A DNA stretch of 64,000 nt from a virus (lineage: Duplodnaviria > Heunggongvirae > Uroviricota > Caudoviricetes). The stretch is taken from the IMG/VR virus record IMGVR_UViG_3300021399_000097, one strand, 5' to 3'. Under the pieces are notes generated by a model. The model ran no database searches. It was not told the origin of the DNA and saw only the letters and a list, made by a program, of their open reading frames with translations. Below, piece by piece: positions 3,877-52,123 of the stretch (its first letter is position 1; every line of letters begins with the position of its first letter). The translations under genes and the position numbers were made by a program.

Positions 3877-3905
3877 ATTATATCATATTTTTTCCTATGT
3901 GTCAA
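3877..3905 (-). promoter_or_regulatory. sigma70-type promoter P1 (TTGACA, 17 nt, TGaTATAAT) for dnaE
   Basis: Perfect consensus on the minus strand. Confidence 0.6.
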
Positions 3906-4074
3906 GTTGTTCCTGCAAACTGTCAATACCTTCTACAAGTATCTGTGTCATCACAGCAACTGCACCTGCATTATCAGTTTTAGAAAGCAAATAACCAATA
4001 AGATTATTTTCATCATTATTATAAAGGATTTTCCGCATTTCATCCAATAATTCTTGTGTAATTTCTATTTGCAT
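3883..4074 (-). CDS. small hypothetical protein (63 aa, 1 in-frame TAG)
   Basis: ATG overlaps the upstream TAA. Ends at TGA, and its 3' end carries the DnaE promoter. Confidence 0.3.
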
Positions 4075-4075
4075 A

Positions 4076-5320
4076 TTAATCTCCTATTAAAATAATAGTA
4101 TCGCTTGCACGAGTTACTAAAGTATAAAGATATTTAATATATTCTTCTTTTCCATTCTTATGTAATACCCATTTGCCATCAAAACCTAAAATCTTACTCC
4201 ATTCACTACCTTGCGCTTTCCAAGTAGTAATTGCATATCCATAAGTAAAATCATAAGGAATAAAATCAACCATATTAGAACGAATTGCTCTAGACATATA
4301 CTGTCGCAATTTATATAATTGTTTAGGGGTGAGCGCAGGTTCATTAGTTTTTAAAAACTTATAATCTACAGGAATAGAAAGATACATATCTTCTTCTTCT
4401 GGTATTCTCATATTAATCATCAATAAATCAACATTTGGTAAATCTAATCTACTAGGATAATGAGCATCATAATGTCTTAAACTTTCAATGTTTCCAATAG
4501 CTCCATTTGTTAATGGGACTTGATTTTGACTTGTAAAATCCCAATGATTACTTAATGCAATAATTTTGTCATCCTTTTCTGGCTCTGGCCCAAATCCAAA
4601 TAAAGTTCGTGCTTGATTATTAATATTCATGCGTTGAGTATTAGTTGCAGTAAGTATTTGATCAGCTCCTAAAATACATGCATTAAGGTCATCTGGGTCC
4701 ATTCGTTTTATAGAAGGAATAATTCTAACTTCTCCACTAACATTTTGAAAATTAATAAAATCTTTTCCTTCTCTAATATGCATAGAGAGACGAATAATTG
4801 CACTATCTTGCGCCTGCCGCATTATTTCATCCAAAAATATATGAGGATGCTCTAATACATGGTTGTTAATTTCTCGTCCTTCTTCATCTTTTCCTATCGG
4901 TGGGAGTTGCCCTGGGTCACCAATAGCAAGGACATGAACTCTATATGTTAATAGCAAATCCCACATATATTTTGGCAGCATACTGACTTCATCCACAACA
5001 ATTAGTTTATATTTATGGTCTAATGTTTTTTTAGGCTCATACATATATTTTCCATTTGGAAGAGGAACTGAATAATAAATAAGTTTATGCGCGGTTACTG
5101 CATTAGGACATCCTTTTTGTCGTAATACATTAGCTGCTTTTCCCGTATAAGCCACATATGCAATATCTTTTGGTGAGATATGGAGTGCATCAACAATAAA
5201 ATGAACTAATGTTGATTTACCAGAACCAGCATATCCCGCAATTACGGTATAAGGGAGTCCTAGATTATAATTAGCAACAGCTATTTTTAATCCTTGTTCT
5301 TGTTTATTTGTTAATTGCAC
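4076..5320 (-). CDS. SF1 DNA helicase (Dda/RecD-like)
   Basis: Walker A GYAGSGKST, VVDEVSM, IGDPGQLPPI, TWKAQGSEW, LYTLVTRASD. Confidence 0.75.
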   Translation of the reverse strand: MQLTNKQEQGLKIAVANYNLGLPYTVIAGYAGSGKSTLVHFIVDALHISPKDIAYVAYTGKAANVLRQKGCPNAVTAHKLIYYSVPLPNGKYMYEPKKTLDHKYKLIVVDEVSMLPKYMWDLLLTYRVHVLAIGDPGQLPPIGKDEEGREINNHVLEHPHIFLDEIMRQAQDSAIIRLSMHIREGKDFINFQNVSGEVRIIPSIKRMDPDDLNACILGADQILTATNTQRMNINNQARTLFGFGPEPEKDDKIIALSNHWDFTSQNQVPLTNGAIGNIESLRHYDAHYPSRLDLPNVDLLMINMRIPEEEDMYLSIPVDYKFLKTNEPALTPKQLYKLRQYMSRAIRSNMVDFIPYDFTYGYAITTWKAQGSEWSKILGFDGKWVLHKNGKEEYIKYLYTLVTRASDTIILIGD

Positions 5321-5335
5321 TTCATTTCACCTTTC

Positions 5336-5647
5336 TTATACTACATAATGTCTTTCAATAATTTCTTCTTGCCAATGAATATCAGGATATCTTTTTTGAC
5401 AGTATTCTATAAGCTCATCAGCAGTCATATAATTAAAAAGTTCCCCTTTAAAAAAATCTTCATGGAGAGTAAGATAATCCCAAAACTCTTTAAGATTTTC
5501 TTGTGGTTCTATTATTAAAAAATGTTCAATATCCGAAACAATATCATAAACTTCTCTTCCTTTACGAAGAAAAGATTTAATATCTAACAAATCTAAAGCT
5601 TGCTCAGTTAATCTCATAGATTCATTATATGTATAGTATTTTTTCAT
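5336..5647 (-). CDS. hypothetical protein
   Basis: Intact ORF ending in TAA, downstream of promoter P2. Confidence 0.4.
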   Translation of the reverse strand: MKKYYTYNESMRLTEQALDLLDIKSFLRKGREVYDIVSDIEHFLIIEPQENLKEFWDYLTLHEDFFKGELFNYMTADELIEYCQKRYPDIHWQEEIIERHYVV

Positions 5648-5653
5648 ATATAT

Positions 5654-5682
5654 ATTATATCATAATTTTTTAATTTTTTCAA
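5654..5682 (-). promoter_or_regulatory. sigma70-type promoter P2 (TTGAAA, 17 nt, TGaTATAAT)
   Basis: Minus-strand motif family. Confidence 0.55.
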
Positions 5683-5693
5683 TTATAAAATTA

Positions 5694-50167: not shown

Positions 50168-50209
50168 AACTCGGCCTTACTCCCAATTAAAGACCGAGTT
50201 ATTTTTTAG
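50168..50209. terminator. hairpin (ACTCGG..CCGAGT + T-run), possible attenuator or terminator
   Basis: Stem overlaps the ruvC stop. Orientation unclear. Confidence 0.3.
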
Positions 50210-50659
50210 CACAGCGCAAGCACCAATACAAATTGCATCAGCTTCATCTTGGCTAACTTTTTTATTATAATGTTGAAGCACATATTCTTGAGCATTCTTT
50301 TTCTATTCTTCTCTTTTACGTCCTTTAATACCTAGCTAAGATTTCCAAGTGTTAGAACTAATTATCTCATAAACATAACCTTGTTCTGCTAAGTATTCTT
50401 GAGTTACTCCAAATATCTCTGCTAATACTTTAAATGTCTATACATTATTTATCTATGACTACATTTGAATATCTTCAAAGACTACTGTTTCAACATCATA
50501 TTCATTAATTAAGTTTTCAATTTTCTTGCGGTAAGCCGCTAAACGCTTACCAACATCATCTTGTGTTAATGTAAATGTTCCACTGTCTATAAGTGTTTGG
50601 TTATCAAATACCGACCACCCTGAAGTTCTACTAGCCTAATCTAGTGCTAATAGTCTCAA
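50177..50659 (-). CDS. RuvC-like Holliday junction resolvase (6 TAG)
   Basis: MRLLALD...SGWSVF N-terminus and C-terminal EADAICIG. TTG start overlaps the dUTPase TGA. Confidence 0.6.
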
Positions 50660-51081
50660 GAGGTACTACCAAAGCCGCCTTCGCGCACTGTAGTCACTAC
50701 ATCACCAGTAGTAGAGTAGGGCATAAAAATACCCTGTCCAATTTTATCATCTTTATATACTGCTACTGGTTCATTAGAGAAATTATAAACCTGGAACATA
50801 ATATGTCCTTCGTTATCTGGATTATCGTAATAATCAGCGTCAATAACCCCAATACCATTAGCGAGCATCAAAGATTTCTTTTTAGGAGTAGAACTACGAA
50901 TTGCGAGCATAAGCCAATAGCCATCATCAATCTATGCTTTTGTTCCTGTTGGAATTAAAGCAATACTATGAGGATTGACTACAGTATGCGCGGCACAATA
51001 AAAGTCATAGCCTGCGGAACCTGCTGTAGCACGTTCGGGCAGTTTTGCATAAGGATAAGTAGATACCTATTCAAATTTCAT
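50656..51081 (-). CDS. dut: dUTP diphosphatase (2 TAG)
   Basis: AGSAGYD, IRSSTPKKKS, GVIDADYYD, GGFGSTS. ORF 50656..50910 is the C-terminal fragment. Confidence 0.8.
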
Positions 51082-51083
51082 AA

Positions 51084-51305
51084 TCAAAGGTCCTCCGGCC
51101 AGAAACTACCATAATTTTTTGTAATTTTTACTTGATAACCAGAATCAATAACTTCTCCCTTTTTCTTTTTCTCTTTATAGGTAGAAGTATAACTAGCAAC
51201 AGAATACTCTACACCAGCATCTGCTTTAACTTCTTCAATCAATTCTTTTGCTTCATTTTCTGTATTGACACGAAATGTTTCTACTGTCGTTAAAAGTTTT
51301 CTCAT
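51084..51305 (-). CDS. hypothetical protein
   Basis: Intact ORF. Confidence 0.4.
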   Translation of the reverse strand: MRKLLTTVETFRVNTENEAKELIEEVKADAGVEYSVASYTSTYKEKKKKGEVIDSGYQVKITKNYGSFWPEDL

Positions 51306-51553
51306 TCTATTACCTCAATCTTTACATCTTCACAATTATAATTTGTTTTACTATAAGTTCTAATTTTCTGTTCAAGGGTCTCACCATAGGGTCCCGCAAG
51401 AACAATTTTTTCATATTTACCAGTTTGATATTCTGTACTCATAAGATTAGCAATCTCATCTGCAGTACCTTTAAATAATGGCACAGTATTTTCATTCTCT
51501 TGGATAGAATAAACTTGAGTATTCATATCAAACATGTTAAATTTACAAAACAT
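51302..51553 (-). CDS. hypothetical protein
   Basis: Intact ORF. Confidence 0.4.
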   Translation of the reverse strand: MFCKFNMFDMNTQVYSIQENENTVPLFKGTADEIANLMSTEYQTGKYEKIVLAGPYGETLEQKIRTYSKTNYNCEDVKIEVIE

Positions 51554-52077
51554 TACCTACATTTTACAACGCCCCAATCATAATTAAATAACATAAATAG
51601 CATTGCTCCATTTTCATTCTTTATCCAACATTCTACTTGCTGATTATCATCATCATACTCAATATGTTGCACAACTCCAACATCTTGTAAACATTCAATG
51701 ATTACATCTTCTACATTTTCATTTGCGCTTTCTTCTATTTTAAATACTGTATAATAATGGATATCATTACAAAGTAGCATGAAATAACTATCATTAGAGT
51801 AATTATCAATAAAATCTCGTAAGATTTTCTTTGCAGGACTTAACTGTTGTTCTGTAATTAAAGATGGAAATTGCGCGACTATCTATTTCTATAATTCATA
51901 ATTGGTAAGTCCAGTATTTACAACTGTATCGTTTGTATCAACTACTAACCAATCATGCGCATCTTCATTATAACGATAAATGCACTAATCTTTTTTACTA
52001 TAAAGATAATCTCCATCTTTTGGAATATCTGTATAATCTTTTAATTCATCAAAGATTCCAAGGTTAATAATAATCAA
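51553..52077 (-). CDS. hypothetical protein (about 174 aa, 3 TAG; start uncertain)
   Basis: ORF 51553..51780 extended upstream through 3 TAG to a TTG next to AAAGGAG. Confidence 0.35.
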
Positions 52078-52094
52078 CTCCTTTCTTTATAAGA

Positions 52095-52123
52095 ATTATA
52101 TCATAATTTTTTTAAAAAATCAA
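52095..52123 (-). promoter_or_regulatory. sigma70-type promoter P17 (TTGATT, 17 nt, TGaTATAAT) for the dUTPase/RuvC operon
   Basis: Minus-strand motif family. Confidence 0.55.

Follow-up and report, generated by a model that had tools for sequence, protein, structure and literature searches.

Seventeen minus-strand blocks of a large TAG-recoded phage are probably strong sigma-A promoters read by a Clostridia host

The DNA stretch of 64,000 nucleotides from the IMG/VR virus record IMGVR_UViG_3300021399_000097 (Caudoviricetes), referred to here as the window, carries on its minus strand a family of seventeen similar blocks with the architecture TTGA-17 bp-TATAAT, distributed between positions 3877 and 52123. 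Judged from their sequence, these blocks are very probably strong promoters for the housekeeping sigma factor (sigma-A) of the host and would drive operons for early functions and replication in a large, TAG-recoded Clostridia phage. As such they are an ordinary kind of phage early promoter and belong to a known type of element. The window corresponds to positions ~64970-128969 of a 176,465-bp metagenome scaffold from ENA, which gives a phage genome of at least 176 kb, of which 64 kb were analysed; the metagenome suggests a sheep-rumen-type source.

A search for the exact pattern TTGAHW-N14-TGNTATAAT returned 11 matches, all on the minus strand, when 0.06 were expected. If one mismatch was permitted in the 12 key positions, 20 sites were obtained, 19 of them on the minus strand, compared to 2.3 expected from a first-order Markov model. 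Two sites, at 3497 and 32893, are intragenic and do not possess a spacer of T and A tracts, and they were dropped from the family, leaving 17 minus-strand members (11 exact and six with one mismatch), which are named P1 to P17 (Table 1). In 17/17 copies the −35 hexamer begins with TTGA and the spacer measures exactly 17 bp; a perfect TATAAT is present in 15/17, two of the imperfect copies having altered −10 hexamers. The TG extension is present in 13/17 copies, as TATG in most, and the other four have TA at this place. For an independent detection, an nhmmer profile was made from 615 sites of other phage loci with the window sites excluded. The top 18 matches of this profile to the window (E ≤ 0.05) were the 17 blocks and one plus-strand site, named P18, and the next match had an E-value of 1.1. 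Such a gap indicates that there are no further copies and none upstream of plus-strand genes, where the pattern scan of the window did not find any either.

Repeat finding also grouped the sites independently, with 69-91% likeness over 45 nucleotides and a subfamily of five copies that is alike over about 61 nucleotides (72-87% identity), while the longest exact run common to any two copies is 28 nucleotides and the median 11. An initial annotation of this DNA had listed seventeen minus-strand sites over the same range, and both count and range are confirmed by the pattern scan and the independent profile; its assignment to sigma-70/sigma-A-type promoters with a TG extension agrees with the spacing, placement and orientation of the sites, with the statistics and with their retention at orthologous places. 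In placing all sites on the minus strand it overlooked the perfect plus-strand TTGACA-17-TATAAT of P18. The surroundings, described there as often identical, are so in two copies only, which contain TTATGATATAATATATATAGAA exactly, six more being similar to it within three mismatches. Blocks of 45 identical base pairs do not exist and, with a longest exact identity of 28 nucleotides, the blocks are poor substrates for the recombination that had been proposed for them. As each slot keeps its peculiarities across relatives, there is no sign of homogenisation between copies.

Aligned copies yield the consensus TTGA(T/C)TTTTTT-AAAAAA-TATG-a-TATAAT-ATATAT-AGAAAAA, and most are followed by an AGGAG-type ribosome-binding site. 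Beyond the classical hexamers, information content is also high at the spacer and at positions +1 to +6. All copies (17/17) are located upstream of a co-oriented open reading frame (ORF), 6-39 nucleotides from its start codon and in one case at 92 nucleotides; instead of the 30-60 nucleotides of the initial annotation, we find 23-39 nucleotides from the end of the −10 hexamer at 15 sites, 6 nucleotides at 5654 (P2) and 92 nucleotides at 24682 (P9). In the case of P2, the ATG of ORF 5336-5647 begins 6 nucleotides past the −10 hexamer, at the predicted transcription start, and is not preceded by a ribosome-binding site, and the corresponding mRNA may be leaderless. A T-A-G triplet occupies the predicted +1 position 7 nucleotides after the −10 hexamer. 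According to published work, TRTG is frequent among Firmicutes, the distribution of transcription starts has its centre 7 bp past the −10 element, Terrabacteria show an excess of YRR start triplets and the composition of the spacer modulates promoter strength (bioRxiv 10.1101/2025.01.23.634641). The TATG of the blocks matches the Firmicutes TRTG extended −10 and their T-A-G matches the 'start' element published in that work. When 17 window sites and 370 related sites were inspected for an UP element, enrichment of A upstream of −35 was weak. At P5, P6 and P8, the TGA stop codon of the upstream gene falls inside the −35 hexamer TTGAC (at 15640, 15883 and 23593, respectively), an arrangement which at P5 is kept in relatives.

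The strict 40-nucleotide block was detected in more than 120 IMG/VR phage contigs with GC contents of 25-50%, as a rule with multiple copies per locus that share a strand, and 239 sites of those loci that had not been search seeds yielded the same extended consensus. In 68 loci with a relative of the window's gyrB (44-80% identity), 386 sites were on the gene strand and 34 on the opposite one. Gene order is kept with four relatives, and the promoters occupy the same intergenic slots. Retention at orthologous intergenic positions extends to relatives with no more than 40-80% protein identity. With at most one mismatch, the motif is retained in orthologous regions in 28/30 cases for P4, 8/8 for P3, 35/40 for P5 and 15/18 for P10, and less frequently for P9 (21/31), P7 (16/35) and P8 (18/62). 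The proteins flanking these regions are only 36-67% identical, and in alignments conservation is limited to the stretch from −35 through about +10. Peculiarities of individual slots persist, in that orthologues of P5 and P6 do not have the TG either, which argues for selection on each promoter and not for copying between promoters. Some changes of order have occurred beside the blocks: at the P8 slot, the promoter is located one gene further upstream of gyrB in several relatives, the homologue of the gene at 23590-23907 has moved in L159, and the fibre-like gene beside P7 is found in the window phage only. A subclade of relatives whose GyrB is about 50% identical (L154, L157 and L182) does not have TTGA-17-TATAAT and shows instead a repeat, TTATTGTATAATAATATG, which has no −35 element and often stands directly after a terminator hairpin. 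This suggests that their host uses a different promoter grammar without a −35 element, and the replacement of the motif fits promoters that track the host.

A pointer to the host came from a search of 185,579 species genomes for the 40-nucleotide pattern, which yielded 54 stretches only, nearly all in Bacillota assemblies from rumen or gut. Several of them are phage contigs that had been binned with Clostridia genomes and are related to the window phage (protein identity up to 83%). On large chromosomal contigs of three Ruminococcus flavefaciens isolates and two metagenome-assembled genomes, the block is found directly upstream of the gene for 6S RNA (Rfam RF00013, 66-70 bits). This 6S promoter reads TTGATTTTTTGAAAA-N5-TGnTATAATATATATAGAAAAAGAAAAT, and window copies agree with it at up to 40/52 positions, including the spacer and the +1 region. 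The ssrS promoter of R. flavefaciens thus has in common with the window blocks the −35 element, the T-then-A spacer, the TG, the −10 element, the discriminator and the A-rich start, and differs from them in that it is a single chromosomal copy and drives a non-coding RNA. The likeness could be due either to convergence on an optimum of the polymerase or to transfer. It is the best evidence that sigma-A of the host prefers the whole block and that this host is Ruminococcus-like.

Other features point in the same direction. Promoters of Bacteroidetes are defined by TTTG / TAnnTTTG (PMC6847099); instead of a −7 TAnnTTTG without Shine-Dalgarno sequence, the window displays AGGAG-type sites and TTGA-17-TATAAT. 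A megablast of 20 kb against the INPHARED phages gave no match and hence no close cultured relative, and the closest cultured relatives, judged by DNA polymerase III alpha, are Enterococcus phages and Bacillus SPbeta with about 40% identity in the polymerase. For the TAG-recoded phAss-1 group, Clostridia hosts have been predicted (PMC10607447). A low-GC Gram-positive host and not a member of the Bacteroidetes, as proposed in the initial annotation, is therefore supported by the ribosome-binding sites, by the Enterococcus and Bacillus phage relatives and by the near restriction of the strict block to Bacillota. Most likely, the host is a Clostridia bacterium resembling Ruminococcus, and it is plausible that its polymerase uses the blocks directly, without a phage factor.

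According to the mechanism that we propose, the host sigma-A RNA polymerase would read the blocks and start the early and replication-phase operons. It would recognize near-optimal core elements, namely −35 TTGA(C/T)T, a 17-bp spacer with a T-run followed by an A-run, the TRTG '−16' extension in the form TATG, and TATAAT. Further downstream, the discriminator ATATAT, composed of A and T only, would follow, the T-A-G triplet would set the first base of the RNA 7 nucleotides after the −10 hexamer, and an A-rich initial transcribed stretch would lead into the AGGAG ribosome-binding site. Sequence, spacing, position, orientation, statistics, conservation and identity with a host promoter are shown for the blocks, whereas polymerase binding, start positions, strength and timing are predicted. 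The GC content of the window is 31%, and from position 1 to about 43 kb the genes lie on the minus strand, which contains a replication set (DNA polymerase III alpha-type polymerase, SF1 helicase, RecJ, primase and DnaB), an AAA_24 ATPase, NAD-dependent ligase, GyrA/GyrB and RNase H as well as RNA-repair-type genes (kinase/phosphatase, RNA ligase and a Thg1-like enzyme).

Several points weigh against this interpretation. A generic sigma-70 scan gave 104 sites against 94 expected in one region and 141 against 113 in another, which leaves enrichment unclear, and strings resembling TATAAT are common at 31% GC; with the generic scan near chance, the argument rests on the extended motif. We infer the promoter function of the blocks, in the phage as well as in the host, and the identity of the host itself. 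The strong conservation seen at the spacer and the +1 region might partly be due to binding of a phage regulator or to a role of the mRNA 5'-end, and not to polymerase contacts. No domain of a sigma factor or RNA polymerase was found, in a search that was confined to the 64-kb window of a genome of at least 176 kb.

The high information content of the spacer and of positions +1 to +6 can also be explained if the blocks are host-polymerase promoters that double as operators, with a phage protein or a host nucleoid protein binding to the T-run/A-run spacer or to ATATATAGAAAA and shutting off or boosting early transcription, in which case the additional conservation would be due to the regulator and not to a preference of the polymerase. 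Candidates for such a regulator are the first genes after P4 (13370-13735, with weak winged-helix-like Pfam matches under the curated cut-offs) and after P5 (without Pfam match), and early promoters of T4, too, show additional consensus regions and are subject to modulation by phage proteins (PMC2988021). We consider this unlikely, since the host 6S RNA promoter displays this spacer pattern and +1 region as well, without a phage factor, and since spacer, discriminator and start elements act on the polymerase directly (10.1101/2025.01.23.634641); also, no regulator was identified in the 64-kb window.

Another possibility is that the blocks are mainly mobile cassettes of terminator and promoter, comparable to the PeSL elements of T4-type phages, that mediate gene-shuffling recombination between phages. 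Clear hairpins are present directly upstream of P11, P14 and P16, and a weaker one at P15; five copies share the stretch of about 61 nucleotides, and the gene order near the blocks varies among relatives in the three instances given above (the gyrB shift, the 23590-23907 homologue and the fibre-like gene at P7). However, most copies have no adjoining stem-loop, other terminators being about 100 nucleotides away, as at P10, so that the resemblance to PeSL is only partial, exact identity between copies is short, orthologous copies keep their slot-specific sequence and most positions are stable across relatives. This makes a predominantly recombinational role rather improbable.

A phage sigma factor or RNA polymerase with sigma-A-like specificity, encoded outside the window, might also read the blocks. 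In favour of such a factor, the analysis covered 64 kb, whereas the genome comprises at least 176 kb, and the distant relative SPbeta possesses its own polymerase for late genes. In contrast, the host 6S RNA promoter with the same block cannot involve a phage factor, the driven genes (polymerase, helicase and primase) are typical early genes in need of the host polymerase, the window does not reveal a sigma or polymerase domain, and the motif equals the host consensus, and we regard this explanation as very improbable. Functionless AT-rich repeats of low complexity, finally, as might be suspected in an AT-rich genome where generic promoter-like strings are near chance level, are effectively refuted by enrichment, strand bias, intergenic placement, fixed spacing, conservation across genomes and recovery with the independent profile.

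If the blocks are read as host sigma-A promoters, the operons can be assigned as given in Table 1. Besides P18, the table contains the two hairpins that enclose the lysis cassette and the 6S RNA loci of the Ruminococcus genomes.

Table 1. Predicted promoters of the window, hairpins enclosing the lysis cassette, and 6S RNA loci preceded by the block in Ruminococcus-type genomes.
Feature	Position	Strand	Description
P1	3877-3905	-	TTGACA-17-TATAAT with TG; heads DNA polymerase III alpha-like gene (TTG start 3841); predicted start ~3870
P2	5654-5682	-	heads ORF 5336-5647, then SF1 helicase 4076-5320
P3	11350-11378	-	replication operon: 10636-11316, DnaB, primase, RecJ
P4	13774-13802	-	heads 13370-13735, then 12426-13370 and AAA_24 gene
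P5	15612-15640	-	TA for TG; heads 15297-15572, then hairpin, then TAG-rich GIY-YIG gene
P6	15855-15883	-	TA for TG; ligase TGA stop within −35; heads 64-aa ORF 15637-15831
P7	17840-17868	-	−10 is TAAAAT; heads NAD-dependent DNA ligase 15880-17811
P8	23565-23593	-	upstream TGA stop within −35; heads gyrB, gyrA
P9	24682-24710	-	heads RNase H operon via 92-nucleotide leader
P10	28553-28581	-	heads 28075-28521, small membrane ORF and PhoH/PIN (14 TAG); then terminator, endolysin, holin-like gene
P11	31475-31503	-	preceded by terminator 31519-31551; heads phosphatase, polynucleotide-kinase-like and phosphoesterase genes
P12	34871-34899	-	TA for TG; heads HNH endonuclease, RNA ligase and band-7-like genes
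P13	36794-36822	-	heads small ORFs and phosphoesterase 35380-35952
P14	38228-38256	-	TA for TG; preceded by terminator 38268-38295; heads 37817-38197 through 36854-37192
P15	43056-43084	-	−10 is TATTAT; heads Thg1-like gene and 38.3-43.0 kb operon; divergent from plus-strand block
P16	49532-49560	-	preceded by terminator 49570-49607; heads 49215-49505, 48906-49214 and radical-SAM gene (15 TAG)
P17	52095-52123	-	divergent from fibre genes; heads 51553-52086, dUTPase, RuvC and 49610-50146
P18	24603-24631	+	perfect TTGACA-17-TATAAT without TG; in RNase H leader, convergent with P9
Bidirectional intrinsic terminator	26498-26524	.	between PhoH and endolysin; conserved counterpart in L135, L155 and L159
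AT-rich bidirectional hairpin	24710-24775	.	after holin-like gene, directly upstream of P9; closes lysis compartment
6S RNA locus, L204	6734-6963		
6S RNA locus, L224	2059-2287		
6S RNA locus, L235	6058-6285		
6S RNA locus, L202			
6S RNA locus, L201			

TAG is a sense codon in this phage, as plus-strand ORFs at 52215-63504 are open only when TAG is read through and TAG positions are mostly opposite glutamine in aligned relatives. The initial annotation had set the TAG-rich fibre genes of the plus strand apart from the motif. In-frame TAGs are, however, also carried by genes of the P16/P17 island and by others behind blocks, the counts downstream of P3, P10, P16 and P17 being 3 for RecJ, 14 for PhoH/PIN, 15 for the radical-SAM gene, 7 for RuvC and 3 for dUTPase. 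Many recoded genes therefore sit in ordinary host-type operons, and for these recoding, not a promoter switch, may set the timing. P16 and P17 do head a minus-strand island within the plus-strand block, as had been noted, both being located upstream of co-oriented genes, and the divergent arrangement at P17 is likewise present in the relative L323. The claim that no such motif precedes the TAG-rich fibre genes of the plus strand or the lysis cassette holds for the plus-strand genes, whereas the lysis cassette lies on the minus strand downstream of P10.

The lysis cassette consists of the endolysin gene (25085-26476, with 5 TAGs) and a holin-like gene (24774-25085), and there is no room for a promoter of its own: only about 20 nucleotides (TTTTTTATAGAAGGAGG) separate the upstream terminator from the endolysin ATG. 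Both hairpins enclosing the cassette are conserved in relatives. With a terminator in front and no space for a promoter, the different expression mechanism postulated in the initial annotation is better understood as read-through combined with suppression of TAG, on which both the lysis cassette and the GIY-YIG gene probably depend. When the 220 nucleotides upstream of P10 were folded, the terminator was obtained and no special structure. The GIY-YIG gene itself (14083-15290, minus strand) has 12 in-frame TAGs and encodes a long coiled-coil N-terminus. It follows a hairpin formed by GGGGTAAA...TTTACCCC, and a very similar hairpin occurs in L123, at a position that may or may not be orthologous. 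Rfam at gathering thresholds found no family at this gene and hence no sign of a group I intron.

P18 is kept at the same place, 14-17 nucleotides from the ATG of RNase H, in six relatives, and in other leaders antisense matches do not exceed the background. Its predicted RNA would extend from ~24638 to ~24775 and end after about 130 nucleotides at a strong hairpin (z = −5.4) with a U-rich run, located past the holin-like gene. A long antisense RNA over the whole lysis cassette was also considered and was downgraded in view of this hairpin and U-rich run, which make a short cis-antisense RNA likelier than a long transcript of the lysis genes; P18 probably yields the short form.

A wider reading would combine four proposals, and that all of them hold together seems doubtful to us. 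Host-type promoters would run throughout infection, late genes of the minus strand being timed without a separate class of late promoters; the endolysin, holin-like and GIY-YIG genes, located behind conserved terminators, would need read-through and a suppressor tRNA; P18, conserved in seven genomes, would fire antisense out of the leader of RNase H, in the direction of the lysis compartment; and the identity with the 6S promoter would mean that the promoters are tuned for polymerase capture in rumen cells that grow slowly. Within the window, neither tRNA genes nor Rfam families were found.

Promoters of the late genes on the plus strand could not be defined from k-mers, relatives or shared motifs. 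The candidate core TATAGAA occurs before the endolysin gene and before those at 46122 and 17955, and also inside every early block; it is not kept before endolysin orthologues, does not emerge from k-mer enrichment in relatives, and was rejected. Likewise rejected as too weak was AATTGGACRAATTA, which is found twice, 84-87 nucleotides upstream of plus-strand fibre genes, and in 0/188 other loci. The sequence AATTGGAC(A/G)AATTA occurs on the plus strand at 17868-17881 and 52134-52147, before the two plus-strand fibre-type genes, and a looser AATTGG in three divergent regions, including that at 43135, and in L323 at ~5825; these may be a late-gene signal or due to chance. In relatives, synteny of the Thg1-like neighbour with the late region is lacking, and a search with the fibre N-terminus provided one useful relative only. 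A degenerate copy of the block (TTTTTTTGAAAAAATATGGTACTATAAT) is located at 46011-46042 on the plus strand, after a terminator (45986-46010) and before the TAG-rich gene 46122, and possesses TATAAT with TTGAAA only 11 nucleotides upstream.

Some further features of the window were noted. On the plus strand, 52215-63504 comprises three very large ORFs of 1012, 639 and 2107 codons (TAG as sense) with dozens of 9-nucleotide-periodic alanine-rich repeats, and matches to virion, baseplate or fibre families were obtained for the middle ORF only. At 46509-46896 (plus strand), a TAG-containing ORF of unknown function harbours repeats with a period of 12 nucleotides and recurring TGT/TGC (cysteine codon), which were detected in the DNA sequence alone. 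A plus-strand gene with 4 TAGs (17955-18985), which is located within the replication block of the minus strand and divergent from P7, encodes repeated G(D/N/S)Y(N/S)xLxN(R/K)P motifs, typical of tail fibres; its match to PHROGs is faint and of unknown function, and the gene is not present in the four syntenic relatives. At 28800-43016, the minus strand carries the RNA-repair-type cluster, consisting of polynucleotide kinase/phosphatase, several phosphoesterases, RNA ligase, a cyclic-phosphate-processing receiver domain, a nucleotidyltransferase and a Thg1-like tRNA-His guanylyltransferase, with 0 or at most 1 TAG in each gene.

For a large clade of Firmicutes phages of 120-240 kb from rumen and gut that have not been cultivated, the results provide a promoter model, cross-validated and ready for use, with which operons can be delimited from sequence. 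The match to the Ruminococcus 6S RNA promoter illustrates that promoter grammar can indicate a host without CRISPR or prophage evidence. As parts for use in Clostridia, the blocks are candidates for strong promoters.

Early promoters of T5, SPO1 and phi29 are similar to those of the window in that many near-optimal promoters for the host polymerase are employed. The early 'uber' UP/-35/TGn/-10 promoters of T4 (PMC2988021) resemble the blocks in being many, near the consensus for the host polymerase, equipped with TG and with extra consensus positions, and in heading early units, where they out-compete host promoters. In contrast to T4, the presumed host of the window phage is a Firmicute, as indicated by the TRTG form of the extension and by leaders rich in Shine-Dalgarno sequences, there is no clear UP element, the −35 element is TTGA(C/T)T and not the T4 variant, and modifiers of the Alt, AsiA or MotA type are not known. 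PeSL of T4-type phages (PMC2839356, PMC4122927) consist, as do some window copies, of a hairpin, a sigma-70-type promoter, a ribosome-binding site and a start codon between small early genes, and some differences in gene order between relatives of the window phage adjoin blocks; however, only about 4/17 window copies have an adjacent stem-loop, their identity is too low for efficient homologous exchange and their positions are mostly stable.

With the sigma-A grammar of Firmicutes (bioRxiv 10.1101/2025.01.23.634641), the blocks share the 17-bp spacer, TRTG, a Y-R-R start 7 bp after the −10 element and a structured spacer, although the phage set is far nearer to the optimum and far more uniform than promoter sets of the host. 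Close counterparts are the TAG-recoded gut phages of the phAss-1/'Phassvirus' group (PMC10607447) and those recoded phages that Borges et al. described (bioRxiv 10.1101/2021.08.26.457843). Neither publication gave a hit when searched for 'promoter', and the megablast of 20 kb against INPHARED did not reveal a match of the window to these phages at the nucleotide level. Like the window phage, they use TAG as glutamine, have a DNA polymerase III alpha-type polymerase and recoded genes for dUTPase, holin and a radical-SAM activase, are predicted to infect Clostridia and have Enterococcus phage EF1 as a distant cultured relative.

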